Assembly: GCA_965225985.1 (NCBI GenBank)
Contig: OZ245330.1
Coordinates: forward strand, 3,098,019-3,162,018
Origin: a bacterium
GTDB taxonomy: Bacteria; UBA8248
Direction of reading: 5' to 3'
DNA: 64,000 bases
The notes below the pieces were generated by a model. It was given only the letters and a program-made list of their open reading frames with translations, was not told where the DNA came from and ran no database searches. Positions 7,762 to 58,870 of the stretch are shown one piece after another; the stretch's first letter is position 1, and each line of letters starts with the position of its first letter. A program made the position numbers and the translations under genes.

Positions 7762-8491
7762 GGCGAAGAAGCACCCGGGAAGCCATTCCCCCCGCCGGAA
7801 AAAGAGATCTGTTGAAAATTCACGTTCACCGGTGAATGACCCATTTACCGCGTCCCGTGGGATGAACCATACGGTTTGCAGGGTTCCGGCTTTTTTTGCA
7901 TAATTTACGCGGAGCGGTGAAAAAGGGACGCGGGATCGACCTGTACGCAGCAAGCCCGAACAGACGGCAAAAAGGATTTCTCCATGGCGGAAAGCGAACA
8001 TTCTTCCCATGTTGGGGAGGAGGAGCGAAACGAGGAATCGGGCGCATATGGGCCCTCCGGGGACGGCGACGCGGCCACTTCACCGGCGGCCGGGCTGATC
8101 ACGCTCGGATCGAAGACCGCCTTGCTCTCGCGCCCGATGCCCTGCCCCTACCTCGGCTCAAGCGAGGGCAGGGAGCACCCCTTCGACACGCCCTCCCGGA
8201 GAAACGGCTGCTACGCCCAAAAGGGGAAGAAAAAGGGGGGGCCGGCGCCCGGGGGCCGCCTCGTACAGCCGCATTCCGCGTGAAAAGCAAGAAAGCCATT
8301 GCTTGAGCCATTTCGCCCAATGCGAGCTGTACCAAAAAAAGCTTCAAGAGGAACCCGAAGATGCCGCGGGCGGGGCTGGGTCCCGCTCCAACTCGGATTC
8401 ACCGGCTTCCGATGCGAAGAGCAAACAGAGAGATAAGACGCATCGGTCCGGAACAAGAAAGAGAAAGTAATCGCGGAAAAGATCCTTTCCC

Positions 8492-8980: not shown

Positions 8981-9763
8981 ATGAGAAAAATATTTTCCCC
9001 GGTTCAGTTCGATTTCCGGGCCCGGAACGTTGGGCCGCCTGAAAGGAAAACCCTTTTCCCGGCGAAAACGGCGCGCCTCAAAATACGGAACCGGCTGGCG
9101 GTACTGGCCGTCCTTTTATCCGCATCGTGGGCAACGCCCGCCCTCCCCCAGGCTGAGAAGAAATCACCGCCGCCCGGGGCGCCGACAGCGGACCGGCCCA
9201 CGCTGGCAAAGGGCGATTGCTGGCGATACCGGAACCTGAACGTCCGGAAGGGCCCGAGCGAATCGGTTCGATGCGTCGTTAAGGTGCTAAACGACGGCTA
9301 CGTCATGCGGACAAAAGGCCGCGTCGAGGGACTCGCCCGTTACGATCGCAACCTGGTTTGGCTCGGCTCGATCGGCCAAAACAGGGTCATCCGCCAGCCG
9401 GGGCGGAGCCGGCCCCCGCTCCGGCTGAATTTTCCCCTCTGGGTGGGAAAAAGCTGGTCTGACAGTTACCGGGTGCTGGATGAAACGCTCACCGGCTTCC
9501 ACCATTTTGCGAATCTCTACGTCGTCGAAGCCGTGGAGACCATCCGCATTTCATCCCAGGATATCCTGACTTTCCGAATCCGGTGGATCAGAAAAAGCGT
9601 GGCGAGCGGCGAGTCGGCCGAGGGCCACACCTGGTACGCGCCCGCGGTCCGGAACGTGGTGCGGATACAAAATAATTGGCCGGGCGGAACGAACCTCATT
9701 CTGACCGGGTTCAAACCCTCATCCAACCCTCCCCAGACAACAGGGCGCCGAAAATCGAAATAG
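8981..9763 (+). CDS. Hypothetical secreted protein
   Basis: 260-aa ORF with a signal-peptide-like segment (RLAVLAVLLSASWATPALPQA). I see no recognisable family. Confidence 0.5.
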   Translation: MRKIFSPVQFDFRARNVGPPERKTLFPAKTARLKIRNRLAVLAVLLSASWATPALPQAEKKSPPPGAPTADRPTLAKGDCWRYRNLNVRKGPSESVRCVVKVLNDGYVMRTKGRVEGLARYDRNLVWLGSIGQNRVIRQPGRSRPPLRLNFPLWVGKSWSDSYRVLDETLTGFHHFANLYVVEAVETIRISSQDILTFRIRWIRKSVASGESAEGHTWYAPAVRNVVRIQNNWPGGTNLILTGFKPSSNPPQTTGRRKSK

Positions 9764-9811
9764 CGTTCGGCTCAAGTTTTCTCCAAAGACGCTTCACAGG
9801 CCGATTTCCCC

Positions 9812-11134
9812 TCACGATGTAAATCGGAAACCGCCGACCAGCGCTCCGGGCAGCAAGCTTCCCCGCATGGATCGGGAGGAGTAGGTGCCGCCGTCGGCGA
9901 TGAGATCGCGCTCGGCGGTCAGGCCCAAAAGGTTCTCGCCCAATGCACGATAGAGGGTTTCGTCGAAACGCATGACCGCGAGCGGGGCCTGAATTTCACC
10001 GCCCTCCACCCAAAGCGTTGCAAAGCGCGTGAGACCCGTAATCCGGCAGGCGGGGATGTCGGAAAAGTTGAGATACCACAGATTGTTGACGTACACCCCT
10101 CTCTCCAGCTTCGAGAGGACCCCGCTGGCGGAAACCTCCCCCGCCGTCATTTCGATGAACTGCGGCATCTCGCCCTCCGAAGCGCCGTTCGTCGCCACGC
10201 CATACTCCCGCGCGGACCGCGGCGAGACCAAGGCCTCGGAAAAGGCGCCGCCTTCGATAAGCGGGATGCGGGGGGGCCTCCGGAAACCCTGCTCCTGGAA
10301 ATCGGGCGAACGGCCCTCCCGGGACTCTTCGGTCAGATGGATCGATTTGCTGAGGAAGAAACCCTCTTCAAACATTTTCAAAAGGGGCGTCTTCTTGGTA
10401 CGGCAGGCCCGGAGGCCGAACCCGCCGTAGCTCACCAAATTCAAAAGCTCCCGAAGCGCCGCGGGCGCGAGGTAAACCCGGTATTCTCCGGGCGAAATGC
10501 GGCGGGGCGGGCGGGCGAGAACCTCAAGATGGCGCGCCGTCTTTTCCATTCGATGGCGAAACTCGGCGGGCTCCCACTCGGCCCCGGCGTACTCTCCCTT
10601 CGCGGCCTTATCGGCGGATCGGTACAGACTCCAATCGAGCCCAAAGCGAAACGTGGAAAACCAGTTCCGCTGCCCGAAAGAGTTTGCGAATCCCGCGTGG
10701 ATCCCTCCCGCCGCGTAGAAGCCGACGAGATCCTTCTCCCGGGCGGCCTCCAATACGGCCTCCGTCACATTCTGGGTGTCCGGAAGCCGATTTTCACTTC
10801 TCCATTCGCTGGAGCCGTCCTCGGTCGCAAAAAGAAGATGCGGATCCTCCGGAAGGATCGGCAGGATATCCCGAAGTTCCCCCAAGAGCCTCGAGACGGC
10901 GGGGCGATCCGCCTCGGCCCGGCCGCTGATGACGGTCTCGCCGCGGGCCCGCCGCCCATCATCGATCAATTCGAGAAGAAGATATCCCTGGAATACGGAA
11001 CCGGCCTGCCGGATTCTAGACCGGTTGAAGCGGACGAAATCCGAATCCTCCCCCCTATAAGAACAAAGGAGAATCTCACTTCCGCGCAGGAGGGAATTCG
11101 CCCAATCGGCGATGGCGTAGAAGAATTCTTTCAC
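9812..11134 (-). CDS. pmbA: PmbA/TldE-family metallopeptidase-like protein (peptidase U62 partner)
   Basis: 440 aa. It overlaps the tldD stop by 4 nt, has the PmbA_TldD fold pattern and lacks an intact HExxxH. Confidence 0.75.
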   Translation of the reverse strand: MKEFFYAIADWANSLLRGSEILLCSYRGEDSDFVRFNRSRIRQAGSVFQGYLLLELIDDGRRARGETVISGRAEADRPAVSRLLGELRDILPILPEDPHLLFATEDGSSEWRSENRLPDTQNVTEAVLEAAREKDLVGFYAAGGIHAGFANSFGQRNWFSTFRFGLDWSLYRSADKAAKGEYAGAEWEPAEFRHRMEKTARHLEVLARPPRRISPGEYRVYLAPAALRELLNLVSYGGFGLRACRTKKTPLLKMFEEGFFLSKSIHLTEESREGRSPDFQEQGFRRPPRIPLIEGGAFSEALVSPRSAREYGVATNGASEGEMPQFIEMTAGEVSASGVLSKLERGVYVNNLWYLNFSDIPACRITGLTRFATLWVEGGEIQAPLAVMRFDETLYRALGENLLGLTAERDLIADGGTYSSRSMRGSLLPGALVGGFRFTS

Positions 11135-19270: not shown

Positions 19271-19495
19271 CTACTTGTTCGTGACCCTGACATCGAGTGT
19301 TGTGCCGGTGCTCTGAATTCCAATTGGCACGTATGCTAAATCAGGATTGATCCTTTCCCCGGCCACCCCGACAACATCCACCTGCATCACCCCCTGCGCG
19401 CCCAACCCCCCCGGCGCGAGCCAGGGGTTCAGCGCGATGAGCGTTAAGGCGAGGGCGATGACGGTCCAGACGACGTTCTGATATATCCCGCGCAT
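19271..19495 (-). CDS. Small membrane protein, copy 1 of the MRGIY family (constant N-terminal TM helix, variable C-terminus)
   Basis: MRGIYQNVVWTVIALALTLIALNPWLAPGG followed by a unique 40-aa tail. Confidence 0.55.
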   Translation of the reverse strand: MRGIYQNVVWTVIALALTLIALNPWLAPGGLGAQGVMQVDVVGVAGERINPDLAYVPIGIQSTGTTLDVRVTNK

Positions 19496-19833
19496 TTGAA
19501 TTCTCCTTTGGGATGGGCAGCGGAACTCGTTCTCACGCCCATTCTACCGCCATCCTTTCCGGCCGGTCCCCCTCCCTGCCCTCCCCCGAAGGGGGAGGGA
19601 AAAATGCTCCCCCTCCCCCCCGGGGGGGGGTTGGGGGAACCCCCAAAATCAAAGATTTTAGGGGGCCCCGGGGTGAGGGAAAAAATAACCCCCGCGCAGG
19701 GCATGGCCCGGAATGAAAGGCGCGAGGCGTTCAGAATTACATGAGGGGGGGGGGAATCCGGGATGCGGGGGAAGGAATTTCACCCTCTCCCCTTGGGAGA
19801 GGGTGAGGGGGATGAGGGGTGAGGGGAAAAATC

Positions 19834-21304: not shown

Positions 21305-21490
21305 CTACCGCTCAACTTTAACGTGAATGGGTGTGGCAGAAGCAATTGACCTTCTACCTATTTTAGCGATATCCACCTCCATCACTCCCCGCGCACTTAA
21401 TCCCCCCGGCGCGAGCCAGGGGTTCAGCGCGATGAGGCTGAGGGCGAGGGCGATGACGGTCCAGACGATGTCCCGATAGATCCCGCGCAT
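21305..21490 (-). CDS. Small membrane protein, MRGIY family copy 2
   Basis: MRGIYRDIVWTVIALALSLIALNPWLAPGG followed by a unique tail. Its stop is 14 nt before the tape-measure start. Confidence 0.55.
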   Translation of the reverse strand: MRGIYRDIVWTVIALALSLIALNPWLAPGGLSARGVMEVDIAKIGRRSIASATPIHVKVER

Positions 21491-21653
21491 TGGAATTCTC
21501 CTTTTTGGATGGCGGTGTATGATTCATCGTTCGCCCATTCTACCGCCATCCGGCCCGCCCCGCCCGGGGTGGGCCGCCCGCCAACGTGGGAATCTATAAG
21601 AGGAGGATGAAAACCCAACTACCGGAAATTCGGGGAAATTTAAATGGGGAAAA

Positions 21654-21972: not shown

Positions 21973-22164
21973 TTACTTGCTTTCAATAACCACAACAGGA
22001 ATAGGTTCATAAGAAATGCCTTTACCGCCAACACTAACAATATCCACAGGAGTAATTATCCCCTGCGCACCCGACCCCCCCGGCGCGAGCCAGGGGTTCA
22101 GGGCGATCAGCGTTAAGGCGAGGGCGATGAAGGTCCAGACGACGTTCTGATAGATCCCGCGCAT
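21973..22164 (-). CDS. Small membrane protein, MRGIY family copy 3
   Basis: The internal ATG of ORF 21973..22275 is preceded by AAAGGAGAG and encodes MRGIYQNVVWTFIALALTLIALNPWLAPGG.... Confidence 0.55.
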   Translation of the reverse strand: MRGIYQNVVWTFIALALTLIALNPWLAPGGSGAQGIITPVDIVSVGGKGISYEPIPVVVIESK

Positions 22165-22354
22165 GATTGTTCTCTCCTTTTGGATGGGCGATGGAATGCG
22201 TTCTCTCAAAAACATTCTACCGCCATCCGGCCCGGCCCGCCCGGGGTGGCCGCCCCGGGGAGGCCCGCCCGCCAACGTGGGAATCTATAAGAGGAGGGAG
22301 GAAACCCAACTACCGGAAATTCGGGGAAATTCGGAGGGGTGCAGGAAGGAAAAC

Positions 22355-22679: not shown

Positions 22680-22862
22680 TTAATCCAAAACTCTAACAGG
22701 AATAGAAGCGCCTACTCTGAATCCGCTTATCCGAACAACATCCACCTTCACAATCTCCGACTGCGCACTCAAACCCCCCGGCGCGAGCCAGGGGTTCAGC
22801 GCGATCAGCGTTAAGGCGAGGGCGATGACGGTCCAGACGACGTTCTGATAGATCCCGCGCAT
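22680..22862 (-). CDS. Small membrane protein, MRGIY family copy 4
   Basis: MRGIYQNVVWTVIALALTLIALNPWLAPGG...VRVLD. Confidence 0.55.
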   Translation of the reverse strand: MRGIYQNVVWTVIALALTLIALNPWLAPGGLSAQSEIVKVDVVRISGFRVGASIPVRVLD

Positions 22863-22922
22863 GATTGTTCTCTCCTTTTGGATGGGCGATGGAATGCGTT
22901 CCCGCAAAACATTCTACCGCTT

Positions 22923-31315: not shown

Positions 31316-32707
31316 CTAGGCGCTCCCCTCCACCTCCAACCCGAACTGCGAGGCCAGGTGGGCGAAGAGCTTTCCCGCCGCCCCGTCCTTGATCCAGCCC
31401 CGCCGCGTGGCGAGGTCCAGGGCGCGGCCGATCTCGTGGAGGGCGGCCGAGAGCTTTTGAGTGTCCTTCACGGAAATTTCCGGAAGCACCGCCCGCGCCC
31501 CCGCCCGGGCCGCCTCCTCCGAGAGCCTTCCCGCGCGGCGCGCCTCCGCGAGCTGCTTTTCGGCCATCTGCTGGAGGATGTGGCGCACCGTCCGCTGGCG
31601 CCGGCGCATCCGCTTCAGGGTGGGCTGGTCCATCGACTCCGCCGAGGCCCGGTTCGCGTCCTCCCCCTGGCCGAACCAGTGCTGGGGCACCCCCATCCCC
31701 CCCAGAACGAGCCCGCGCATGAGCCGGGCGAGCCCGCCCGTCCCCGCCTCCCCGGACCGGAGGTCGGGCGAGATCACCTGCCAGGCCTCCTTCTCGTTGT
31801 GCACCCGCACGCTCGCCGGCCGGGGGGCGGCCCCGTTCTGGGCCAGCCACTCGGCGATCCGCTCGGGCCCCGCCCCCTTCAGCGTCACGTCGTAGACAAA
31901 ACTGTTCTGGATGCGGGAGCGCTCGGCCGCGTCGAAGAGAAACCGCTCGTAGATGTCGATCCAGTCGATGGCCGCGAGGATGTCGCTCGTCCCGCGCGCC
32001 GCGTCGCTCGCCTTGTTGATCTGGAAGAGGAACGCCTCCCCGCCCCCGAAGCGCTCGCGCTCGCGCGCCGCCGCCGGGCCCAGGTACTCGCGCGGGTCCC
32101 CGGCCAGCACGGTGCGGACCCGCCGGCCCGGCCCCCCGTCCTCCCGCTTGAGGATCACCCCGATGGGAAGGGCGCAGTTGTCCGGATCCGTCACCACCTC
32201 CTCGATGAGGCGGGGCGAGATGTAGCCCAGGCGCACCCTCCCCTCGAAGCGCGAGACCGCCGCCGGGAGCAGCAGCTCCCCGAAGATGCCCAGCTCGCTC
32301 ACCAGCCGCTCGAAGCGGAGGTCCATCTGGTTCACCGGGTCCTCCCAAAATCCCCGCACCGCCGCCAGCGCCTCCGGGTCCGGGCTCTGCCACGAGATTC
32401 CCTCCCCCACCACGTGGTCGGTCACGATCTCGATGAGCCGCCGCCCCATCAGGTTGGTGAGCCAGAGGTCGTAGGCCAGCCCCTGCATCCGCTCCTGGGT
32501 GTAGCGGGGAACGTCCCCCCGCCGCCCCGAGAGCGAGCGCCAAAGATCCTCGTCCGGATCGATCGAAGTCCCCGGAAAGGCCGCCCGCGCAGGGGAAGCC
32601 CCCCGCGCAGGCGTTGCCCCCGGCTTCGGGGGAGTTGCCCCCTTCCTCGCCGCCTTCTTCGCGCCCGCCGCCGCCACATTCGCCAAGGCCGAACCCTCCC
32701 TTTTCAC
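31316..32707 (-). CDS. Phage portal protein
   Basis: 463 aa. The GTG/ATG start lies within repeat copy L1. The size, charged C-terminus and position immediately upstream of the capsid gene fit a portal. Confidence 0.55.
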   Translation of the reverse strand: MKREGSALANVAAAGAKKAARKGATPPKPGATPARGASPARAAFPGTSIDPDEDLWRSLSGRRGDVPRYTQERMQGLAYDLWLTNLMGRRLIEIVTDHVVGEGISWQSPDPEALAAVRGFWEDPVNQMDLRFERLVSELGIFGELLLPAAVSRFEGRVRLGYISPRLIEEVVTDPDNCALPIGVILKREDGGPGRRVRTVLAGDPREYLGPAAARERERFGGGEAFLFQINKASDAARGTSDILAAIDWIDIYERFLFDAAERSRIQNSFVYDVTLKGAGPERIAEWLAQNGAAPRPASVRVHNEKEAWQVISPDLRSGEAGTGGLARLMRGLVLGGMGVPQHWFGQGEDANRASAESMDQPTLKRMRRRQRTVRHILQQMAEKQLAEARRAGRLSEEAARAGARAVLPEISVKDTQKLSAALHEIGRALDLATRRGWIKDGAAGKLFAHLASQFGLEVEGSA

Positions 32708-32860
32708 CCAAAAATCATCCCGCGTCCGCCCTCTCCCCGCATGGAGAAAGGCCCGGGCCGCAAAGGCGCAAACGCCCCGCGCAGCCCCTTCTACCGGGGG
32801 AGCCTAGCCCAGGCTCGGAGAAAGCCAACTACCGGAAATTCGGGGAGGTTTGTGGGGGGG
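32668..32860 (+). repeat. Long copy L1 (about 190 bp) of the dispersed repeat family; it includes the portal gene's upstream region and first roughly 13 codons
   Basis: About 90% identical to 35531..35725. Contains the core at 32823-32845 and ends in a G-run. Confidence 0.75.
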
Positions 32861-33015
32861 GACGGGGGGGCTTTCTCCTGGGGGAGCCCAGGCCACACGG
32901 GAGAGAGTCAGCTGGCGGATATGCGGGGATGGGTGAGGAGGTGTCGAGCCCGGGCGGGCGGATCCCTCTATAATAATATGTTTTTTCTCACTCGCAATTT
33001 GAGGAACGATCAATA

Positions 33016-33774
33016 GTGCTTGCTTTCTATCTTGATGAATCAGGAACCCACAGCCTTAACCCCATAGAGTCTGAGTACCCAGTATTTGTATTGGCCGGGT
33101 GTCTAATGGACCAATCTTATCACGACAAAACGGCTACCGAGAGAATGAATCAATACAAGACTTGTCTTTGGAGACGAGAGGACATTATTTTGCACACTTC
33201 AGGTATCGTCGGAAAACAAAAAGGGTTTGAAAATTTAAGGGATGAAGCCGAATGGGAGAAGTTTTTAAGAAAAACAAATCGGCTGATGAGCGAATTGGAT
33301 TACATGGTTATCGCTTGCGCCATCCTAAAAAATGCACACAAAGAAAAATATGGTGGGGCGGCCTTTAACCCTTATTGTTTTTCTTTAGAAGTATTGGTTG
33401 AGCGATTGGTTTTTGAACATCGGGATAGAAAAGAAGTGGTTCCCGCTCAGATCATTGCTGAATCAAGGGGTGAAGTGCCTGACAGGCGACTCGATCTTGC
33501 ATGGAAGCGCCTTAAAAGAGATAGAACCTCTTATATTGGAGCAAAGGAAATTCGAACAAGAATCAAAGACGATGTTGTATTTTTTCAGAAAAAAGAAAAC
33601 ATTTACGGGCTTCAGCTAGCGGATTTAGTGGCGAGCCCAATAGGCAGAAAGGTTCTTGGGAGGCTAAGTCAAAATGATTGGGAGATTGTAAAAGGGAAAT
33701 TTCGGACCAACCCAAGAGGAAGGTACACCGGTTGGGGTCTCATTATTTTGCCCAAAAAAGGAAGCGGCCACTAA
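33016..33774 (+). CDS. DUF3800-domain protein
   Basis: Starts MLAFYLDESGTHS.... AT-rich (about 45% GC) island. Confidence 0.7.
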   Translation: MLAFYLDESGTHSLNPIESEYPVFVLAGCLMDQSYHDKTATERMNQYKTCLWRREDIILHTSGIVGKQKGFENLRDEAEWEKFLRKTNRLMSELDYMVIACAILKNAHKEKYGGAAFNPYCFSLEVLVERLVFEHRDRKEVVPAQIIAESRGEVPDRRLDLAWKRLKRDRTSYIGAKEIRTRIKDDVVFFQKKENIYGLQLADLVASPIGRKVLGRLSQNDWEIVKGKFRTNPRGRYTGWGLIILPKKGSGH

Positions 33775-33911
33775 AAGTGACCGCCCCACTCCACGTGTGC
33801 CCAAGTATTGTCCGGGCACCGGTTTTACAATCTAAATATAAGCTTCCGGCTATTCATTTGTCAAATATCACGTAAATTCAACGATTTGCATGGGTTTTGG
33901 CTGTTTATAGG

Positions 33912-34136
33912 TCAGCCTTCCCCTTCGAGCCCCTTAATTGCGGCCACAGCCCTCTGGCCGTCGCTCATCCCCCGGTGGTTCCAGCGGAAATCAAATTCGC
34001 TCAAGTATCGGGGCAAGTGCTCTTTACTGACGTGGTGGAAGGTTCCAATCACGCCACGCTTTATGAGGTTGAAATAGCTCTCGGCAAAATTCGTGTGAAT
34101 GATCCCGCAAAATTTCAGTTGGCCGAAGGCCTCCAC
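33912..34136 (-). mobile_element. Remnant of an IS1595-family transposase (C-terminal fragment only)
   Basis: 74-aa ORF ...IHTNFAESYFNLIKRGVIGTFHHVSKEHLPRYLSEFDFRWNHR... matches the conserved C-terminus of ISXO2/IS1595 transposases. No N-terminal part or inverted repeats were found. Confidence 0.5.
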
Positions 34137-34320
34137 CCCCCGCCCTTCGTGCTAAAATCATCTCATTCAAGAAGCCATCGGGAAAAATTTGCGGGTGAAT
34201 GGTTTCCACGCGCTCTGTTCTCCCACGAGGAGGTGGCCTGCGCTTTCACGCCTCGGGGGCAATAGGGCGCGGCCCGCTCTCCTCATCCATAGCTTATCCA
34301 TTCGAGAGAAAGGGCTCGGT

Positions 34321-35520
34321 ATGCCGATGACCCCTGCCGAGGATCGCATCCTGGCTTGTTTGGACGAAAAAGCCGTCCTGGCGACAACGCGCGAGCTCGT
34401 CCGCAGGCCGAGCGTCAACCCCCCCGGCGACTACGGCGCCGTCGCCGAATTTGTGGAAAATTGCATGAAAGATATGGGCCTCGACGTGGAGATTTCGGAA
34501 GGAACGCCCGGGAGGCCGAACGTGATCGGCCTCCTGCGGGGAGCCGGGGATGGGCCCGCTTTCTGTCTCTCCTCCCACATGGACGTCGTGGACCCCGGGG
34601 ACGGCTCCGCCTGGCGGTTTCCCCCCTTCGAGGCCCGGGTGGAAGAAGGCGTGCTTTGGGGCCGCGGATCGGCCGACTCCAAGGGCATGCTCGCGGGGAT
34701 GCTCGAGGCGGTCCGGGCCATCCGGGACTCCGGCGTGAAACCCAAGGGAGACCTCTATCTGGTGGCCGCCGTGGACGACGAAACCGCAGGGGAGTTCGGC
34801 CTGCGATACCCGTTCCAACAGGGCCTGGTTCCGGCGCGCTCGGCCATCCTGGGCGAGGCTTCGAACTTCGACGTCCCCCACGTCTTCAAGGGCCGGATCT
34901 GGTTCGAGCTGGATGTATTCGGAAAACCGAGCCACGGCGCCTTTCCCCAGGACGGGGTGAACGCCATCCTCAAGGCCTACAAGGTCATCGACGCCATCTA
35001 CGGCATCAAGCTGGGCGGCCATCCCCGCTTGGGGAACGACACCATCAGCCTCGGGACCCTCCGGGGCGGGAAGGTCGTCAACGTGGGTCCAGGGGAATGC
35101 ACGGCGGCCTTCGACGTCCGCTGGGGGCCGCCTCTCGGCAGCCGCGACATCCGGGCAAGGGTGGAAGAGGCCGCAAGGGGGGTCGTACAGAAGGATGGGG
35201 ACTTCGGCGTCGGAAAGATCCGCGCCAGCGAGGAGAGAGACCCCTTGGAGTTTCCGGAAGACTCCCCTCTGATCCGGGCGATCAAATCCGCCTGCCGCAA
35301 GATTCGGGGAAAAGAATCCGGCCTCATCGGCTGGTACTCCAGCGGCGAGGTCTATCACATGTTCCAAGGGGGGCACATCGACTGCGGCACCCTTTTCGGC
35401 CCCGGCGAGCCGCGGCAGGCGCACGCCATCGACGAGCGGATCGCGGTCAAAGACCTGGAAGAGGGCGCCAAAATCTACGCCCTGACGGCCCTGGCCATGT
35501 GCGGCGGGCCGGCCGACTGA
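34321..35520 (+). CDS. M20-family metallopeptidase (ArgE/DapE/acetylornithine deacetylase-like)
   Basis: HMDVVDPGDG, GRGSADSKG, AAVDDETAGEFG and the dimerisation domain are present. Confidence 0.82.
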   Translation: MPMTPAEDRILACLDEKAVLATTRELVRRPSVNPPGDYGAVAEFVENCMKDMGLDVEISEGTPGRPNVIGLLRGAGDGPAFCLSSHMDVVDPGDGSAWRFPPFEARVEEGVLWGRGSADSKGMLAGMLEAVRAIRDSGVKPKGDLYLVAAVDDETAGEFGLRYPFQQGLVPARSAILGEASNFDVPHVFKGRIWFELDVFGKPSHGAFPQDGVNAILKAYKVIDAIYGIKLGGHPRLGNDTISLGTLRGGKVVNVGPGECTAAFDVRWGPPLGSRDIRARVEEAARGVVQKDGDFGVGKIRASEERDPLEFPEDSPLIRAIKSACRKIRGKESGLIGWYSSGEVYHMFQGGHIDCGTLFGPGEPRQAHAIDERIAVKDLEEGAKIYALTALAMCGGPAD

Positions 35521-35530
35521 TCTTCCGGCT

Positions 35531-35725
35531 CCGCCGCCGCATTCGCCGAGACCGAACCCTCCCTTTTCACCCGGAAATCATCCCGCATCCGCCCTCCCCC
35601 CGCATGGAGAAAAAACCGGGCCGCAAAGGCGCAAACGCCCCGCGCAGCCCCGCTACCGGGGGAGCCTAGCCCACACTCGGAGAAAGCCAACTACCGGAGA
35701 TTCGGGGAGTTTTGTCGGGGGGGGG
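35531..35725 (+). repeat. Long copy L2 of the dispersed repeat family, carrying a truncated portal-like 5' gene fragment
   Basis: Core at 35685-35707 (variant GGAGATTCGGGG). The reverse strand encodes (M)KREGSVSANAAAEPED..., similar to the portal N-terminus (M)KREGSALANVAAAGAK. Confidence 0.75.
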
Positions 35726-35754
35726 ATTTTTTTCGTGCCGGAAGCCCGGGGGGA

Positions 35755-36180
35755 TCAGGCCGCCGCCAGCACCTCGTTGATCGTCCCGATGAATTTGGGG
35801 AGGGAAAAGGGCTTGCGGACGAGGGCGGCCACGCCGAGCGCGGCCCGCTCCTCCGGGCCCACCTCCTCGGCGGAGCCTGTCACCACCACGCAGGGCAGCC
35901 GGCGGAGGGCGAGGTGCCCGCGGAGAAAGCGGATGAGCGCCCGGCCGTCCATGCCGGGCATGTCCAGGTCGGTCAGGACGAGGTCGAAGGCGGAAGCCCC
36001 ATCCCGCTCCAGCCCCGCCTCCAGCAGGCTGCGGGCGCGGAGGCCGTCCTCGGCCAGGGCCACGTGCCGGAAGCCGAACGCGCCCAGGGCATCGCCGATG
36101 AAGGCGCGCATCCCCTCGTCGTCCTCGGCCACCAGAACGCGGCAGCCGCGATGGGGGGTGGAAAGTTCCCTGGAGTCCAT
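35755..36180 (-). CDS. Single-domain response-regulator receiver (CheY-like)
   Basis: RVLVAEDDEGMRAF...DLVLTDLDMPGMDG...VVVTGSAE.... Divergent from the cyclase gene at 36689. Confidence 0.7.
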   Translation of the reverse strand: MDSRELSTPHRGCRVLVAEDDEGMRAFIGDALGAFGFRHVALAEDGLRARSLLEAGLERDGASAFDLVLTDLDMPGMDGRALIRFLRGHLALRRLPCVVVTGSAEEVGPEERAALGVAALVRKPFSLPKFIGTINEVLAAA

Positions 36181-36319
36181 CTTCGCCTCACCGGGCGGAA
36201 AGGCAAATTGCGGTGTGCTATTCAAATTGACAACACATCCGCATCACCCAAAGTAACCCCCCGCGAAAGAAAATCGCAAAAGAGCACACGATCTGCGCGA
36301 AAAAGCCGGGAACGCCCGG

Positions 36320-36440
36320 GCCGCCGCCGGGAGAGCCCGGGCCGCAAAGGCGCAAACGCCCCGCGCGGCCCCGCTACCGGGGGAGCCTGGCCCAGACTTG
36401 GAGAAAGCCAACTACCGGAAATTCGGGGAGGCTTGTGTGG
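36320..36440 (+). repeat. Partial copy L3 of the dispersed repeat (3' roughly 110 bp)
   Basis: GCCCGGGCCGCAAAGGCGCAAACGCCCCGCGC...AGCCAACTACCGGAAATTCGGGG (core at 36406-36428) followed by a G-run. Confidence 0.7.
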
Positions 36441-36688
36441 GGGGGGGAATTTTTGGCCCTGAGCAAGGCCTGCGACTACCTTGTTTCGAATGAAGTGGCG
36501 GAGGAATTCTCCGCTTCTTTTTCTTTTTTTCTCGGTTCGCTTCTGGCGCAATTCCTGGACGCGTTGGTCTCGACTTGCCCTCCCTGGTTGCTGCTTCTCC
36601 TCTTTCTTGACCCTCGAATTCGCAACGCTTAGACTTTGCGGGATTTTCCTTACATTTTTGAGGAACCTGAAGGCCGGAGGACCGCTCA

Positions 36689-39600
36689 TGCAGTGCCCCC
36701 GCTGCCAAGTGGAAGCTCCGTCCGACGCGGAGTTCTGCCCCGAGTGCGGGGCGAAGCTCGCGGCCACCTGCGTTCAATGCGGCACCGAAAACGCCCCCAC
36801 CCATAAGTTTTGCAAAAAATGCGGCCAATCCTTGGCCCAGGCCGACGGCGCAGATTCGGCGGCCGCCTCGAAGTTCGCCTCCCCCGAGTCCTACACCCCC
36901 AAGTACCTCGCCGAGCGGATCCTGACCTCGAAGGCGGCTTTGGAGGGCGAGCGCAAGCAGGTGACTGTCCTCTTCGCCGACCTCAAGGGCTCGATGGAGC
37001 TTCTGGCCGACCGCGACCCCGAGGACGCGAGGGCGCTCTTGGATGCTGTCCTCACCCGGATGATGGAAGCTGTCCACCGCTACGAGGGCACAGTCAATCA
37101 GGTCATGGGCGACGGGATCATGGCGCTGTTCGGCGCGCCGCTGGCGCTCGAAGACCACGCGCTCCGCGCCTGCTATGCCGCCCTCGCCATCCAGAATTCG
37201 ATCAAGTCCTTCGCTGAGGAAGCCCGCAGGGAGCACGGCGTCGAGGTGCACATCCGCGTGGGGCTCAACTCCGGCGAGGTCGTGGTGCGGGCCATCGGCT
37301 CGGACCTCCGTATGGACTACACCGCCGTGGGCCAGACGGTGAACCTCGCCTCCCGGATGGAGCAGTTGGCCCAGCCCGGCAGCATTAGGCTTACAGCCGA
37401 CACCCTGCGGTTCGCCGAGGGGTTCATTCAGGCCGAGCCCTTGGGCCCGGTCCCCATTAAGGGGATGAGCGAGGCTGTCGAGGTCTTTGAGCTAACGGGC
37501 GCGACCTCGGGCAGGACGCGCTTTCAGGCCACCGCCGCGGGCGGTCTCACCAAGTTCGTGGGACGCCGGAACGAACTTGAAGACCTTCAGGGCGCGCTCA
37601 ACAAGGCAGAAGAAGGACATGGGCAGATCTTTGCCACTGTCGCCGAGGCGGGCGTAGGCAAATCGCGCCTCTACTGGGAGTTCACCCGCTCGCACAGAAC
37701 GAAAGACTGGATGGTCATCGAGAGCGGTTCGGTCTCCTACGGCAAGGCGACGGCCTACAAGCCCGTCATCGATCTCTTGAAAGCCTATTTCTCGGTCGAG
37801 GATTCTGACGACCACCGCCGTATCCGGGAAAAAGTGACGGGCAAGGTCCTGACCCTCGATGAATCGCTCACGCCGGCGATTCCCCCCGTTCTCTCTCTTC
37901 TCGAAGTGCCGATTGAGGACGAAGGCTGGACGAATCTCGACCCGCCCCAGCGGAGACAGCGGACTCTCGACGGCGTGAAGGGTCTCCTTCTCCGCGAGGC
38001 GAAGGTCCAGCCGCTCTGCCTCGTATTCGAGGACCTTCACTGGATAGATACCGAGACGCAGGCGCTGCTCGACTCTCTGATCGAAAGCCTGCCGGGTGCG
38101 CGGGCGCTTTTGCTGGTCAACTACCGGCCCGAGTACGAGCACGGATGGGCGAACATGAGCTTCTACACGAGGCTTCGCCTCGACCCGCTTTCCTCGGAGG
38201 GAGCGGCGGAGCTTCTGGCCGCTATTCTCGGCGGGGATCCTGCCTTGGACCCGCTCAAGAAGCTCCTCATCGAGCGCACCGAGGGAAATCCCTTCTATCT
38301 CGAAGAATCCGTCCAGACCCTCATTGAGAGCGAAGCCCTGGTGGGGGCTCCCGGCGCCTATCTGCTGACGGAGGAGGTTTCCAAGATACAGGTGCCCTCC
38401 ACCGTTCAGGCGATTCTCGCCGCCCGCATGGACCGCCTTCCGCCTGAGGAAAAACGCCTGCTTCAGACAGCCTCTGTAATCGGAACACATATGTCTTATC
38501 CTTTGCTCGCAGCTATTGCCGAGATGTCCGAGGAAGAGCTGAACCGGGGCCTTTCGGCCCTACAGGCTTCCGAGTTCCTCTACGAGACGAACCTTTTTCC
38601 GGAGCGCGAATTCACCTTCAAGCACGCCCTGATACACGAGGTGACTTACGGGAGTCTGGTCCAAGAGACCAAACGGGCCCTCCACGCGCTGGTGATCGAA
38701 GTATATGAGAGGGTCTACCCTGACCGCCTGAGCGAACACCTCGATACGCTCGCCCACCACCTTGTTCGGGGTGAGGTCTGGAGCAAGGCGTCCAAGTATT
38801 TTCGCCCGGTCCTCAGCATGTCCCCCGATATCTGGGGGACGGGTGATCATATGCAAACCATTGAGTTGGGCCAGCGCGACCTGGCGTCGGCGGCGAATTA
38901 TCGGAATTTCGGCCTGGAAGTGATGGCCAGCCTCCGCGTTGGCCTGGCCTGCCATGCGTTGGGGGATTATCCTCGGGCGGAGGAGTTGTTTGGGCGGAAC
39001 GTGGCAATGCTGGAAGGCGACCTGACCCGCGAACGCTTCGACCTGCCCGGCATCGCCTCCGTGCTCTCTCGCACCGGGCTGGTCCTATGCCTCGCCGAGG
39101 AGGGAAAGTTCGCCGAAGGAGTCGTGTGCGCTGAAGAAGCGGTCCTGATCGCCGAAGGGGCAAATCACCCGTACAGCATCGCTGTAGCGCAGTTCGGCCT
39201 TGGGTTCTTATATTTCTTCAAAGGGGATTACGCTAAAGCCATTCCCGTGCTCGAGGATGGCCTGGCCTGTGCGCAGGCAGCGGACATCCCGCAGTTGTTC
39301 CCGCTTATTGCATCGCCCTTGGGCGCCGCATATGCGCGCGGCGGGCGGCTGTCGGAAGCTCTGCCCCTCTTGGAGAAGGCTGTGGAAGAAGCCGCTGCTA
39401 CTAAACTCATGATCCATCAGTCGCTCCGGACTGCCTGGCTGGGCGAGGCCCATCTGCTGGCCGGGCGGCTGGACGAGGCGAGTCAATTTGCCCAGCGGAG
39501 CCTGGAACTCTCCCGCAGGCACAAGGAGCGGGGCCATGAGGCGTGGGCCCTCCGGCTCCTCGGCGAGATCGCCTCGCGTTGTGATCCCCCGGACGCCGAG

Positions 39601-41231: not shown

Positions 41232-41693
41232 TCAGGCAGCCAAGGCTTGCTCTTGTTCTTCAATGATGTTCATCTCGGGCGTTGGCTTGGTGATCTCCAA
41301 TACCTCTACTTGGTTTGACCTATCTGCGGGCAGTTTGGGCAACCCTTCCACAGAATGATTGGATTCCCTTACCTCTTCTACTGCGGCCTTCCATTCCCTG
41401 AGAGTTGCTTCGCACTCGTCACAGAAGAAGGATTCCACCTCTCGGCTGAATTCGCTAAAATCCTCCGAACCATAGGCGATATCATAGAGAACCGAAATAA
41501 AAGCTTTTTTGAAGTTTAGATACGCTTCTCCCCCTGTTTTTCCGCCCGCCGAAAGACCTCCGGGGGTAACACCATAAATCCAGGTTCCGGCTTCTTCTTT
41601 AACGGCCAAAACTCGGCCCATAGCAGTGATGTCAGCCACAAAGCCCTTCCCAGAAACCTTTTCCCTAATAGTGAATAGGAGTGGCAGGTTCAT
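41232..41693 (-). CDS. HicB-like (UPF0150, RNase-H-like fold) antitoxin-type protein
   Basis: The N-terminus LPLLFTIREKVSGKGFVADITAMGRVLAVKEEAGTWIYGVTPGGLSAGGKTGGEAYLNFKKA fits the HicB pattern. AT-rich. Confidence 0.45.
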   Translation of the reverse strand: MNLPLLFTIREKVSGKGFVADITAMGRVLAVKEEAGTWIYGVTPGGLSAGGKTGGEAYLNFKKAFISVLYDIAYGSEDFSEFSREVESFFCDECEATLREWKAAVEEVRESNHSVEGLPKLPADRSNQVEVLEITKPTPEMNIIEEQEQALAA

Positions 41694-42009
41694 GGAATCC
41701 CTCCAGTTGGAATAATGCGTCCGATCGCAATTAAACGCACAAAACCCTAACAAAACCCTATAGGTACCTATCGGCACCAAAGCGGGAGTTAATAACACAA
41801 TGGCAAGTTCTCATCAATCGCTGAACTACACCATAAGCGGCCAAGGCTTTCAACAGTAAGTGAACCCCTCTCAGTATAATTTAACCCAAATGAGACAAAA
41901 AGCGACCATTATTTTCATTAAAATGTCCAATTTCACACACATTGTTTGAGCACATTGCATGCCAATTCATCTTGTTTCTGGTTGATATTTGTGGAATTTC
42001 TAAATGGGA

Positions 42010-42236: not shown

Positions 42237-42689
42237 TCACGCCAGGGGTGTGGGAGCGCCCGCCGATTTGGTCTCTTCGAGGGCCTCGCCGATCGCGCCG
42301 GCGAGGTCCTTAAGTTCAAAGGGTTTTTGGAGGAATGCCGGGACGCCGAGGGCGGCGAGCGCCGCGCGGACATCGCCCCGGCCGGTGCCCGACATGGCGG
42401 CGCAGGGCGTCGGCCCGAGATCGGCGTGCCCCCGGATCCAGCGCAGGAGGGTGAGGCCGTCCATCCCGGGCATCCGCAGGTCGGTCAGGACGAGGCCGAA
42501 GGGCTCCTCCCGCGCCAGCCCCTCCTCCAGGTGGGTGAGGGCAGAAAAGCCTTCCCCGGCGAGGGTGACATGGCGGTGGCCGAGGGCGCGAAGGGCCTCG
42601 CCGAGGAATTCGCGCGTATCGGGGTCGTCATCCACCACGAGGATGCGGCGGCCGTTTTCTTCCTCATCTCCGGGAATCGGGGAATCCAT
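42237..42689 (-). CDS. Single-domain response-regulator receiver (CheY-like)
   Basis: RILVVDDDPDTREFL...LVLTDLRMPGMDGL.... A paralog of 35755..36180. Confidence 0.7.
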   Translation of the reverse strand: MDSPIPGDEEENGRRILVVDDDPDTREFLGEALRALGHRHVTLAGEGFSALTHLEEGLAREEPFGLVLTDLRMPGMDGLTLLRWIRGHADLGPTPCAAMSGTGRGDVRAALAALGVPAFLQKPFELKDLAGAIGEALEETKSAGAPTPLA

Positions 42690-42928: not shown

Positions 42929-44716
42929 CTACCGCCGCCACCTGCGCGTCCGGCGGCGGGCGTAGCTCGCCGGGTCCGCCCCCCAGTCGGGGGCCGAGCC
43001 GCCCTCGGTGTACCCCCCGGCGGGCGCGGTGAGGATCCCCTCGGCGCGGGCGAGCTCCTCGGCGAGCTTGGCGTAGGCGAAGGCGAAGTGATTCTCGTTG
43101 CGCTCGAAGCGCGCGCCCCCCTCCCCCTCCCCCTCCCCGCGGCCGCACCCTGAGGTTCATGAGGTGGGCGTCCACCTCGGCGAGGAGGGCTTCCTCGGCC
43201 GCGTCCCGGGGGGCGGGAAGGCGGACCGCGCCGGGCCCCCGTGGAACTCCTCCACAATCCGCTCGAGCAGCTCCTCGCGGTTCAGGCGCACATGGCCGCG
43301 CTCGACCCCGAGGAAGGCGACGCGCTTGACGGCCATCTCGCCCGGGGTGTGCCGCCAGATGAAGCAGCCCTCCGGGAGGAGGTCGTGCATCTCGCGGGCG
43401 GTCTGGGTGAAGGGCCCCCCGTCGATGACGGCGGCCTCGACCCCGAGCCGCCCGAAGAGGTCGGCGCAGCGCGCGGCGAGCCGGTCGATGGGGGGGCCTC
43501 GAAATAGACCCAGCGGACGGGGCCCTGGCCGGAGACCCGCTCGCGCACCGCGAGGGCGCAGCGCTCCCCGGTGTCGATGCCGCAAAAGCGGGGGGCGGTC
43601 ACGGCCCGGCCCCCCCGGCTTCGGCATCTTCCATGAAGAAGGGCTCCGCCCCGCGCAGCCGCCCCAGGAGGTCCGCCCCGATGGACTGGAGGTCGCCCGC
43701 CTCGGGAAGGGCGAGGCTCGAGCAGCGGAACCGCGCACGCTCGCGCGGGCTCGCCGCCGCGCGCCACTTCTCCGCGATCCGCCCGAGGCGGACGGCCCCG
43801 ACCGCGAGCTGGGAGATGCGGTAGCTCCGGTGGCCGGGGGCGGCGGCCTCCGCGTTCTGGGCGGCCCACCGCCCCGCCCCCCGCGCGAGGGCGCCGCCGC
43901 AGGCGGGGCAGGCGAGGGCGCCGGCCGCCGCCTCCCGCATCACCCGGGGCCAGCCCTCCTCCAGGACGGTCTCCTCCCCGCATCCGGGGCAGGGAACGCG
44001 CCAGACCCGCTGGTCCCCGCGCAGGTACATCGCGTGAATTCCCGCCCCGGGCGTCCGCCCCATGGCGAGGTTCACCGTGAGGGCGAGCCCCGAGGCGTCG
44101 AGCCGGTCGTTCGACCACTTCAGGTTTCGGGGGGGATGTCGTCCACCTCGTCCCGGATGAGGACGTCCATCGGCATCGAGATGGCGTTGCCGACATCGCG
44201 CAGGCCCAGGATGTAGAGGAAGCGCGAGCCGCCCCGCCCCGGGAACTCCTTCAGCCCCTTGGGGGAGACCCCCTTGTAGCGGCCGTCCCGCATGGCCCGG
44301 GCGAGGCGGCCGCGCAGGGCGGGCTTCACCCGGGTGTCGTCGAAGCGGTCCGCGAAATTCTGGTCCGGGAGGAAATAGCCCACGTTCAGCCGCAGGCGCG
44401 CCGCACAGTAGATCGCGAGGCCCACCGCGATCGTGGTCATCCCGATCTGGGTCCCCTTGAGGAGGGTCAGCGTCCGGCCCGGCAGGCCGAGGCGGAGCAC
44501 CTTTTCCAGATGGGCCGTCGCCTCGCGGAGGGCCTCCCGCCCGGCGAAGCCGAACCGCCCGGCGTCGGTGCGGATCTCCCGCTCCAAAAAGGCGGGGAAG
44601 GAGAGCCGCCCCGCCCCGAAGACCGGCCTCCCCCCCGCGAGGGAATCGAACACTTCTTCTCCGGTTTTCTTTTGCTGGAAATGAAACGATTTTTCCCCGA
44701 TCCGATCCAAGGCCAC
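42929..44716 (-). CDS. Phage terminase large subunit (GpA-like), with several apparent homopolymer frameshifts
   Basis: N-terminal ATPase segment with 'LKGTQIGMTT'. Later segments in other frames include a zinc ribbon 'CPGCGEE...CPACGG' and ...FERNENHFAFAYAKLAEEL...*. Frame breaks coincide with G/C runs near 44130, 43605 and 43495. Confidence 0.5.
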
Positions 44717-44777
44717 CCTCCCCGGGGAGGCACTTCGCGCCGCTCCCCGGGAGGGAGTCTAGGGCCGGGGCCCCGGA

Positions 44778-44800
44778 AGCCAACGACCGGAAATTCGCGC
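44778..44800 (+). repeat. Dispersed-repeat core, diverged variant (AGCCAACGACCGGAAATTCGCGC)
   Basis: 62 nt upstream of the terminase start on the minus strand. Confidence 0.6.
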
Positions 44801-47009: not shown

Positions 47010-47420
47010 CGCCGTGACCTCCGGGCGGGGGGGCGGATGATACCGGGCTTCCCGTCCCGCCGCGGGCCTCTGGGGAAACGCCGGGCGCGGCCCCTTGCAG
47101 GGCGGCGCCGGGCCCGCGCCCGAACCGCATGAATCGCCGGGCGGTTTTCAAAACTCCGTATAAAGAATGAATATACCTAAAAAATAACACAATTATGCGC
47201 GGGAAAGTTCTACCGATTTAAACTTTTGGCATCTCTTTGCCGGGAAGGCGTTTCCCCGGGTTCGATTCAGAGGAAAAAGCATGGCAGAATTGGATTTTGG
47301 TATAATCGCCGGACGATAGGGCGAGCCGGGGATTTGTGAGATTTCCGGGAAACGGGCGTCCCAAGGCCTTTCGCGCGGCGCCGGGCCGGGGGGCGGCCCG
47401 TTCCCGAGGGGAAGCGCGCC

Positions 47421-49763
47421 GTGCAATGTCCCGCCTGCCAGCATGAAAACCGGGATCGAGCGCACTTTTGCGATCAGTGCGGCGCCAGGTTAGAGCGATC
47501 CTGCCCCCACTGCGGAAACGCCGCCCGGCCGGGCGCCGCCTTTTGCGACCAATGCGGAGGGGCTCTCGAATCCCCCGCCCCCGCCGCTTCCCCTCCCCCG
47601 GGCCTGGAGGCGCGGGCGGAAGCCTTCGCCAGCCGGATCCCCAGCTACACCCCCGCGCACCTGGTCAAAAAAGTGCTGACCTCCCGGGGCGCCATCGAGG
47701 GAGAGCGCAAGCAGGTGACCGTCCTCTTCGCGGACGTTTGCGGCTTCACCGGGCTCTCGGAGCAGCTGGACCCGGAAGAGGTCCACGGCCTCATGGACCG
47801 CTGCTTCGAGATCCTGATGCGCGAGATCCACCGCTTCGAGGGGACCATCAACCAGTTCACCGGGGACGGGGTGATGGCCCTCTTCGGCGCGCCCGTCGCC
47901 CACGAGGACGCGCCCCAGCGCGCCATCCGGGCGGCCCTGGGCATCCAGGGGGCGCTCCGCCAGGAGGCGCTCCGCGAACAAGGCGCGGATTTCCCGGGCG
48001 GGGAGGGCGCGGCGTTTCAGATGCGCATCGGCATCGACACGGGCACCGTGGTGGTCGGCAAGATCGGCGACGACCTGCGGATGGACTACACCGCCGCGGG
48101 GGACACCACGAACCTGGCCGCCCGCCTCCAGGCCGCCGCCGAGCCCGGCACCGTGCTGGTCAGCGAGAACACCCACCGCCTGACGAAGGATTTTTTCGAG
48201 TTCTCCCACGCCGGGCCGATCGAGGTGAAAGGGAAGAAAACCCCGGTGGCCGTCTACGGCGCGATCCGGCCCAAGGCGGTGCGCTCGCGCATGGAGGCGG
48301 CCGCGCGGCGCGGGCTCACCCCCCTGGTGGCCCGGGACGCGGAGATCGGCCACCTCATGACCGCCTTCGCCAAGGTCAAGGAGGGCCACGGCCAGATCGT
48401 CTCGCTGGTGGGCGAGGCCGGGGTCGGCAAGTCCCGCCTGGCGCACGAGTTCAAGAAGCGCCTCCGCGGCGAGGACATCACCCTCTTCGAGGCCTACTGC
48501 CCCTCCTACGGCCATGCCACCCCCTACCTGCCCGTCGCCCAGATCATAAAAGGCTACTGCGGCATCACGGACGCCGACAACGAGGTCAAGATCCGGGAGA
48601 AGGTGACATCGGCCTGAAGCCGGTGGGTCTCGTGGGGTCACCACGAGGGGCTGGACATCACAAAAAGGCTCGAATACGTCATCGCCTATCTCAGCAACAT
48701 CATCTCCATCCGGGTGAAGGACGATCTGCTGCAGGGCATCAGCCTGGAGGATCGCAAGCGGGAGAGCTTCGACGGGCTGAAGGCCATGTTCGTGGGCGAG
48801 AGCCAGGAGAAGCCCGTCGTGGTCATCCTGGAGGACATCCACTGGATCGACAAGATCTCCGAGGAGTCCTTCGACTACCTGAGCGCGAGCGTTCCCAAGA
48901 ACCGGCTCCTCGTCCTGGCGCTCCACCGCCCGGAATACCGGTGTCCCTGGGGGACGAGCTCGAGCTACCTTCGGATTCCCGTCGAGCCGCTCTCCCCCGC
49001 CGAGAGCGACGAGATGATCCACCGCGTGCTGGAGGTCCCGGAGGTGGGCCGGGAGGTGAAGGAGCTCGTCCAGGCCAAGAGCGAGGGAAACCCCTTCTTC
49101 CTGGAGGAGCTCATCCTGGAGCTGCGGGAAGCCGGGTGGATCCGGACGGAGAAAAACGCCTGCCGCATGGTGGGCGCCGGGGCGAAGGCGCAGGTGCCCG
49201 CCACCGTCCAGGACGTCATCATGGCCCGCATCGACCGGCTGGCGGATCCCCTGAAGCACACCCTCCAGCTGGCCGCCGTGATCGGCCGCGAGTTCCCCTT
49301 CGCCGTCCTGGAGAAGATCGCCGATCCGGCCCACCAGCTGGAGCCCTCGCTCCAGTCCCTCCAGCATTCGGAGTTGATTACGGAAAAGAACCTCTTCCCG
49401 GAGCTGGAGTACATGTTCAAGAACGTCCTCACCCAGAACGTGGCCTACAACAGCCTGCTCGTTCAGCGCCGCCGCGAGCTCCACACCCGGATCGCCGCCG
49501 CCATCGAGGAGCTCAAGCGGGACAGCCTGGAGGAGCACTTCGAGGTTCTGGCCCACCACTACAAGAGCGGCAACCAGCCCGGGAAAGCCTTCGAATTCCT
49601 GGCCCGCGCGGGAGAGAAGGCGATGGAACTGCACTCGGTGGAGGTGGCCGAGAGCTACTACAACGACGCCATCGCCATCGCCGCCGAGCTGGACCCTTCA
49701 GACGCGGCGAGGGAGAAGGGGCGCGAGCTGAAGTCGAGGCTGCGGGAAATCGGCACGTACTAA
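47421..49763 (+). pseudogene. Second zinc-ribbon/adenylate-cyclase/STAND/TPR paralog, interrupted by one in-frame TGA (48615-48617); otherwise a single frame
   Basis: ORFs 47421..48617 and 48714..49763 share a frame. Cyclase blocks (VTVLFADVCGFTGL, GDGVMALFGAP), Walker A GEAGVGKSRL and TPR repeats are present. The sequence reads KVTSA[TGA]SRWVSWG.... An extended -10 promoter (TGGTATAAT) lies at about 47303. Confidence 0.7.
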
Positions 49764-58847: not shown

Positions 58848-58870
58848 ACCCAACTACCGGAAATTCGGGC
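58848..58870 (+). repeat. Dispersed-repeat core copy (ACCCAACTACCGGAAATTCGGGC)
   Basis: About 100 nt upstream of the endolysin start, in a divergent intergenic region. Confidence 0.65.

Follow-up and report, generated by a model that had tools for sequence, protein, structure and literature searches.

The repeat copy L2 lies in the window, the whole 64,000-nt stretch of DNA that was analysed, and is read as an orphaned paralogue of the portal expression module, with a putative promoter, a leader, a Shine-Dalgarno (SD) sequence, a start region and 6-13 codons; we give this reading a probability of about 0.7. It is a scar of ordinary recombination, made up of regulatory DNA and a handful of codons, and not the relic of a second portal gene. 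The novelty of L2 itself is low, and it is a small scar, but it is dated and well delimited. It would show how a phage cluster split by host genes keeps its fragments expressed by recopying one dedicated promoter, sometimes so sloppily that leader and coding bases are taken along. The promoter motif is the more valuable by-product, as it would define the regulon of an apparently undescribed element resembling gene transfer agents (GTAs); it offers a handle for finding the regulator, and a degenerate form of it is conserved in relatives.

Extent and anatomy of the repeat

As shown by pairwise alignment of the minus strand, positions 32861 to 32668 (L1) and 35723 to 35531 (L2) shared 177/194 identities with one gap (E = 2e-74 in a window-sized search space). 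The original prediction had placed the repeat copy at 35531-35725, and the alignment agreed with these coordinates and confirmed a genuine direct repeat. The description of the long repeat as the upstream region of the portal gene plus its first codons was also correct, the portal start codon falling inside L1. The coordinates of L1, L2 and the neighbouring features are given in Table 1.

The promoter-like core of L1 was located at 32842-32825 and its -10-like hexamer TAGGCT at 32806-32801. In L2, the core at 35704-35687 reads CGAATCTCCGGTAGTTGG, with a T to C change, and the hexamer TAGGCT is found at 35668-35663, the SD sequence AGGGAGGG at 35564-35557 and a GTG at 35570. The codon of L2 that matches the TTG start of the portal gene is TCG (35549-35547). 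Read from their GTG codons, the minus strands of L1 and L2 encode (M)KREGSALANVAAAG and (M)KREGSVSANAAAE, respectively. Both begin with GTG AAA AGG GAG GGT TCG, after which L1 continues with GCC TTG GCG AAT GTG GCG GCG GCG G.. and L2 with GTC TCG GCG AAT GCG GCG GCG GAG... Downstream of this stub, the L2 frame goes antisense into the M20 peptidase gene. The stop codon of M20 (35518-35520) is 10 nt from the end of the L1 homology, the 3' limit of which (32668/35531) is within the portal ORF.

When the portal protein was compared with L2 by tblastn, 13 residues were aligned with 77% identity (E = 4.5), and only 19-40 nt of coding sequence are shared. The significance of the DNA alignment comes mostly from the approximately 155-175 nt of non-coding promoter and leader. 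The similarity of the two encoded N-terminal peptides, from which a second portal-like gene had been proposed, is wholly explained by the DNA repeat. Across all fetched loci, the leader-plus-stub segment of L2 was seen only at portal genes and at L2. The small ORF running from L2 into the antisense strand of M20 was called as a gene of 37 aa on the conspecific contig L001. This ORF of 31-37 aa is probably spurious and should not be annotated as a gene, nor should the stub be taken as evidence of a second prophage.

Table 1. Positions of the genes, promoter-like motif copies and L repeats discussed in the text (window coordinates).
Feature	Position	Strand	Description
Motif copy	19107	-	upstream of tail protein with F5/8-type C domain
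Motif copy	21615	-	upstream of tape-measure-like gene
Motif copy	22306	-	upstream of tape-measure-like gene
Motif copy	30094	-	upstream of protease-capsid fusion
Portal gene	31316..32686	-	456 aa from TTG 32686, or 463 aa from GTG 32707
L1	32668..32861	-	presumed functional counterpart of L2, 5' of the portal gene and overlapping its start
Motif copy (L1)	32825	-	upstream of portal
L1'	32872..32943	-	degenerate extra promoter copy adjoining L1 on its upstream side
DUF3800 gene	33016..33774	+	low-GC (~40%) foreign DNA
IS1595-family transposase remnant	33912..34136	-	profile positions 113-153 of 153 left (last 41 of the DDE profile)
M20/ArgE-DapE-type peptidase	34321..35520	+	Pfam PF01546/PF07687; intact to C-terminus (..MCGGPAD*), convergent with L2
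31-aa ORF (GTG 35570) or 37-aa ORF (ATG 35588)	35475..35588	-	from L2 into the antisense of the M20 3' end; probably spurious
L2	35531..35733	-	probable orphan copy of the portal promoter with ~125-nt leader, SD, start region and 6-13 codons
RR2	35755..36225	-	single-domain response regulator directly upstream of L2, paralogue of RR1 (42237-42689)
L3	36337..36454	-	L-type promoter (putative) and ~60-nt leader, upstream of RR2
Motif copy (L3)	36408	-	upstream of response regulator RR2
L4	42010..42127	-	L-type promoter (putative) and ~45-nt leader, upstream of 153-aa gene (41232-41702)
Motif copy (L4)	42081	-	upstream of 153-aa gene
Motif copy	44780	-	upstream of terminase ATPase
Motif copy	55697	-	upstream of 137-aa protein with hydrophobic stretch
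Motif copy	58850	-	upstream of M15 peptidase

The portal gene and its start codon

The portal ORF matched phrog_10963 (E = 3e-45) from residue 48 onwards. Its 35 homologues include P0001 (456 aa), which is 99% identical, and those at 64-78% identity belong to uncultured bacteria, the few named matches being Nitrospinaceae. There are three in-frame start candidates, GTG 32707, TTG 32686 and GTG 32677, all within L1, and the portal start must be one of these, since no further in-frame start occurs before Met74, a conserved residue in the conserved core. TTG 32686 is most likely the true start. It is favoured because the SD sequence AGGGAGGG is 8 nt upstream, because the gene caller picked it on near-identical contigs (P0001), and because GTG 32677 is a novelty specific to L1, at which both the orthologue in the sister lineage L025 and L2 read GCG. 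The portal coding sequence within the repeat amounts to 19 nt from TTG 32686 and to 40 nt at maximum.

Alignment of the portal 5' ends of relatives (69-78% identity) at the DNA level showed an N-terminal tail that was too variable to judge the ancestry of the 13 codons. The conspecific contig L022 contains a 54-nt in-frame insertion in this tail, an imperfect repeat (L022 ~10071-10110 against window 32616-32631), and its portal protein has 474 aa instead of 456 aa. The Lys/Arg/Ala-rich tail is plastic and poorly conserved among the homologues.

A family of promoter-like motifs

Eleven copies of the core CGAATTTCCGGTAGTTGG were identified in the window at no more than two mismatches, all on the minus strand, with 0 expected. 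In 10/11 copies, the core ends with TTGG(C/G)(T/C) and is followed by 16 nt and then by a TAnnnT-like hexamer; the variants are TAGGCT, TAGATT, TACATT and TAGACT, with CAGGCT in L3 and L4. The copy at 58850 has a 14-nt spacer. A co-oriented ORF with high GC3 begins 21-324 nt downstream of ten of the 11 copies, the sole exception being L2 (35687).

L1 to L4 form a subfamily that additionally has a common A-tract and C-tract upstream and a leader of 45-60 nt in common, and the remaining approximately 100 nt, through the SD sequence and start, are common to L1 and L2 only. The A-tract of the L-type copies is about 30 nt upstream, and in the short motif copies a further GAATTTCC half-site is seen 10 nt upstream. 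The degenerate copy L1' gave a local alignment score of 40 against 18 +/- 2.9 in shuffled sequences, with 0/300 shuffles reaching 40; it is possibly a decayed orthologue of Lb, a promoter copy of L025. Another candidate for a degenerate promoter copy just upstream of M20 (~34160-34215) was rejected, with a score of 16 against 15.8 in shuffles.

Relatives whose proteins are 69-76% identical (L002, L014 and L024) have CGCATTTCCTG, CGAATTTGCTG or CGAATTTCCTG upstream of terminase or capsid genes, followed after about 17 nt by a -10-like hexamer such as TAGATT or TACATT, and a related motif was also present upstream of the terminase and capsid orthologues in L025. The motif family is best read as a putative cluster-specific promoter that co-regulates scattered head-tail genes. 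A generic sigma-70 consensus scan called neither L1 nor L2, and TAGGCT matches TATAAT at 3/6 positions; for the putative promoter, a dedicated activator or an alternative sigma factor is probably required.

Searches against Rfam gave no matches for the whole window at the gathering threshold or for 32500-36500 at E <= 1. When the four leaders were folded, they were not more stable than shuffled sequences, with z-scores of -0.2 to +1.9. The homology of the L copies reflects descent and not a common RNA element, because the first leader hairpin is cut off in L4.

Exact-motif scans gave no matches in IMG/VR. Among the GTDB species representatives, there were eight single matches in unrelated taxa, which were read as chance, approximately 17 being expected by a rough estimate. 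Two matches were obtained in the JGI metagenomes, and only one of these (L013) was related to the window.

The phage-like cluster and its neighbouring genes

The phage-like cluster (~17600-44800; the GC content of the window is 64.7%) comprises a split terminase, portal, protease-capsid fusion, tube and tape measure, and is flanked by F420 biosynthesis, ornithine cyclodeaminase, MFS and similar genes. Its head-tail proteins showed 64-78% identity across uncultured Nitrospinota/Tectomicrobia-like bacteria (L002, L014, L019, L024 and L025), and host genes are interspersed among the modules in L002, L019, L024 and L025. Locus L020, of the same type, is a compact true prophage. Screening of ORFs across the 64-kb window gave no integrase, recombinase, replication or lysogeny genes, and a tRNA scan, run to look for an att-type junction, detected no tRNA or tmRNA gene in the window. 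The cluster appears to be a domesticated, GTA-like element derived from a phage. A literature search for a GTA in Nitrospinota or for the cluster found nothing relevant, and the element is apparently undescribed.

In six relatives, the terminase ATPase gene, a conserved gene of about 222 aa without a Pfam family and the portal gene are contiguous, with overlaps or gaps of no more than 22 nt. In the species of the window, about 10 kb lie between the 222-aa gene and the portal gene, and the latter has its own putative promoter, L1. The contiguous order of the six relatives is ancestral, and the portal's own putative promoter is therefore a lineage-specific acquisition. Relative to L001, the window also has indels that shift the frame of the 222-aa gene and apparently that of the terminase ATPase gene (window 42929-43600 and 43599-44783), the latter apparently being broken into one frame of 198 aa and a second one. 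Likewise, the paralogous cyclase-AAA gene (47340-49763) is split. These differences could be homopolymer consensus errors or real pseudogenisation.

The homologues of M20 are 71-78% identical in related metagenome-assembled genomes, the named ones being Nitrospinota and Tectomicrobia; their divergence is about the same as that of the portal homologues, and the C-terminus of M20 is conserved in L024. The proposal that M20 was inserted as cargo was not supported, as both L025 and the window have M20 placed between the terminase module and the portal gene, and L024 has it beside the capsid promoter. On these comparisons, M20 is a long-standing neighbour of the cluster that stands beside different modules in different lineages. 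In L024 (6217-6561), the 76%-identical M20 is divergent from the capsid promoter, which has an L1-like architecture of C-tract plus core and a AAGGGAGGG SD sequence ahead of a GTG start. The low-GC block at 32950-34200 (40-53% GC) contains the DUF3800 gene and the IS1595 remnant, the latter also being a gene call in L001, and looks like the only recent foreign insertion.

Rearrangement in the sister lineage and variation among conspecific contigs

L025 has approximately 94-95% nucleotide identity to the window. Its gene order is terminase, 222-aa gene, response regulator, M20 on the opposite strand, Lb followed by a 63-aa gene and a 341-aa SDH/NfeD-type protease, and then La followed by portal, FGE-sulfatase and capsid. 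The place of the unit of Lb, 63-aa gene and protease is taken in the window by the DUF3800 gene and the IS1595 remnant, and the homology of the M20 5' flank between the window and L025 ends at 34130, the edge of the IS1595 remnant.

L2 is absent from L025, in which about 101 unrelated nt, with no match in the window, replace positions 35531-35754. Toward M20, the homology between L025 and the window breaks off at 35529/35530, and toward RR2 it breaks off at the RR2 stop codon; these positions are exactly the limits of L2. With the L1 homology stopping 10 nt from the M20 stop codon, this places L2 at a rearrangement junction, as had been suggested.

The single response regulator gene of L025 (11290-11870) is a hybrid, with a 5' part from RR1 and a 3' part from RR2. 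A homologous deletion of about 6.4 kb in a window-like arrangement therefore gave rise to L025, and the deleted segment contained the 153-aa gene, the TPR, SCO4226-like and cyclase-AAA-TPR genes, L3 and L4. The hybrid gene also contains an odd insertion of about 70 nt and has lost its stop codon. La, upstream of the portal gene, and Lb, upstream of the 63-aa/SDH-protease pair, are identical at 85/85 positions (7881-7975 and 9739-9823), while L1 differs at 7 of those positions. This identity indicates recent copying, gene conversion or concerted evolution among the promoter copies. The hybrid response regulator and the identical promoter copies bear out the view that recombination between repeats reshaped the region. 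The idea of a repeat family tied mechanistically to this rearrangement held in part: the copies do recombine, but the repeat is best read as a promoter family and the rearrangement as a by-product of its many similar copies.

Three conspecific contigs (L001, L021 and L022; >99% identical to the window) have the same layout. All three keep L2 with no more than three differences in 215 nt (98.6-100%), and this retention is compatible with either function or recent common ancestry. L001 was found to be without 943 bp (window 36273-37215; L001 6411/6412), a segment that L021 and L022 keep. Lost with it are the putative L3 promoter and the N-terminal zinc ribbon of the cyclase gene, whose product has 858 aa instead of 1044-1113 aa, and the junction of the deletion has almost no microhomology.

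Age and possible decay of L2

From the core to the boundary (175 columns), L1 and L2 differed at 14 sites and one gap, L1 and La at 15 sites, and L2 and La at 19 sites and one gap. The site patterns are star-like, with 5, 10 and 10 derived sites in L1, La and L2, respectively. When L025 and the other L copies served as outgroups, the few informative sites conflicted, probably due to gene conversion, and did not polarise the duplication. By these counts, L2 would date from around the time when the two lineages split, or it would be younger and have evolved faster.

The changes derived in L2 include ATTT to ATCT in the core, where ATTT is kept in all 10 other window copies, and TTG to TCG at the probable portal start. 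The divergence of 8-9% between L1 and L2 is fairly evenly spread, and one hit in the 18-nt core is about what that rate predicts. The changes suggest that L2 is decaying under relaxed constraint at the core and start, and we infer that it is inactive as a promoter.

Origin of L2

Many near-identical promoter copies in direct orientation would allow ectopic recombination, segmental duplication or gene conversion. The promoter would have been recopied with variable 3' end points, which are at about +45 in L4, at about +60 in both L3 and the Lb copy of L025, and at about +165, inside the portal ORF, in L2. In the case of L2, the 3' end point would have happened to fall inside the portal coding sequence, and the copy would have landed in the spacer between RR2 and the M20 3' end, with nothing to express. 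The simplest account is a single ectopic or segmental duplication of the portal module, with its 5' limit at the upstream edge of the promoter and its 3' break at +19 or +40 of the portal gene, joined to the M20 3' flank. This event would be one of several copyings or conversions of this promoter at the locus. Candidate routes are integration of a circular intermediate through recombination within L, remodelling after a tandem-type duplication, and homology-facilitated illegitimate recombination of transferred DNA. For the mechanism of the duplication, we infer a single event rather than the loss of a whole gene.

L2 could instead be a functional promoter with a new role, which upon induction of the phage-like cluster would produce an antisense RNA over M20 toward the IS remnant or express the 31-37-aa ORF. 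We consider this unlikely, although the -10-like hexamer, spacer length, SD sequence and GTG 35570 are intact and no terminator-like site was predicted on the minus strand between L2 and ~34390. Of the 11 window copies, L2 alone has a mutation at a core position that is otherwise unchanged, and L025 retains M20 yet has no L2. The ORF was picked by the gene caller, but it is mostly antisense of M20 and has no homologue outside L1. L2 is conserved at 98.6-100% in the three further conspecific contigs, but these are >99% identical overall, so its conservation is uninformative.

It is improbable that L2 is what remains of a complete second portal gene, produced by tandem or segmental duplication of the portal region, later deleted from codon 7-13 onwards and with its stub fused to the M20 3' flank, as the original prediction had offered as one possibility. 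The homology of L1 and L2 does pass the start codon into the coding sequence, and the locus has a history of duplication and deletion, as seen in the paralogues RR1 and RR2, the hybrid gene of L025 and the 943-bp deletion of L001. The related compact prophage L020 has a 64%-identical portal and comes from the same metagenome sample as L022 with similar coverage, but the 5' end of its portal gene is not similar to L2. No further portal-derived sequence was found in the window by tblastn, and 9/9 related or conspecific loci have one portal in the stretch examined. Furthermore, M20 is intact up to the junction, so that a deletion would need to end exactly 10 nt past its stop codon, and at least two events would be required where one suffices.

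Equally doubtful is a broader reading in which the L-type modules are a working substrate by which the GTA-like cluster of these Nitrospinota/Tectomicrobia-related bacteria captures, shuffles and co-regulates host genes, with L2 still firing antisense into M20 upon induction of the cluster; each recombination between promoter copies would then move a cassette and give the downstream gene a regulon promoter. That the L repeats are a small non-autonomous mobile element (MITE- or REP-like), one insertion of which lies beside the portal gene, is very improbable: there are several dispersed copies of 120-200 nt with 82-92% identity and an IS1595 remnant nearby, but no terminal inverted repeats or target site duplications were found (only two distant chance inverted pairs), the copies have one orientation throughout and a fixed position upstream of co-oriented genes, their homology end points are nested and variable instead of constant, distant relatives retain the core motif ahead of their orthologous terminase and capsid genes, and the motif is absent from GTDB representative genomes and IMG/VR save for chance single matches.

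Comparison with known systems

The orphaned portal module resembles the scars of duplicated promoters and 5' gene stubs that are left by bacterial segmental duplication and ectopic recombination. As in those, other DNA lies between the two copies of a direct repeat of about 200 nt, of which one is presumably functional and the second, a truncated stub at a novel junction, has lost its start codon. It differs in that the unit comes from a family of co-regulated promoters and that the recombining homology is regulatory DNA and not an IS element or rRNA operon.

The region also resembles phage morons and mosaic module boundaries, in that low-GC DNA and host-type genes lie between terminase and portal genes that are contiguous in relatives, and in that the downstream structural gene would regain transcription from its own putative promoter. 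Unlike in phages with morons, no integrase, replication or lysogeny genes were among the screened ORFs of the 64-kb window. The host genes here include old, vertically inherited ones (M20 and FGE-sulfatase), and the blocks are not morons of promoter, gene and terminator.

GTA-type head-tail clusters have a dedicated regulon, an example being RcGTA under GafA/CtrA. The cluster is similar to these in its head-tail genes, which are 64-78% identical across related uncultured bacteria and lie amid chromosomal genes, in its several units under one common promoter motif, and in the response-regulator genes within the putative regulon.

Other structural variants

In L013 (JGI PVBE012483698.1), which is 93-95% identical, window position 13429 is joined directly to 55699 at a motif copy (L013 2103/2104). 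The junction skips 42 kb including the whole phage-like cluster and represents a deletion variant or an assembly chimera. By eye, position 13429 lies inside a SpoIIE/PP2C-like ORF.

A 149-nt direct repeat is present in the tail module in four copies (19394-19542, 21389-21537, 22063-22211 and 22761-22909) that are 70-95% identical. Those at ~21400 and ~22100 overlap small ORFs, e.g. MRGIY(R/Q).(I/V)VWT.., that are located downstream of promoter copies and near tape-measure-like fragments, and these repeats may be a small duplicated gene family.
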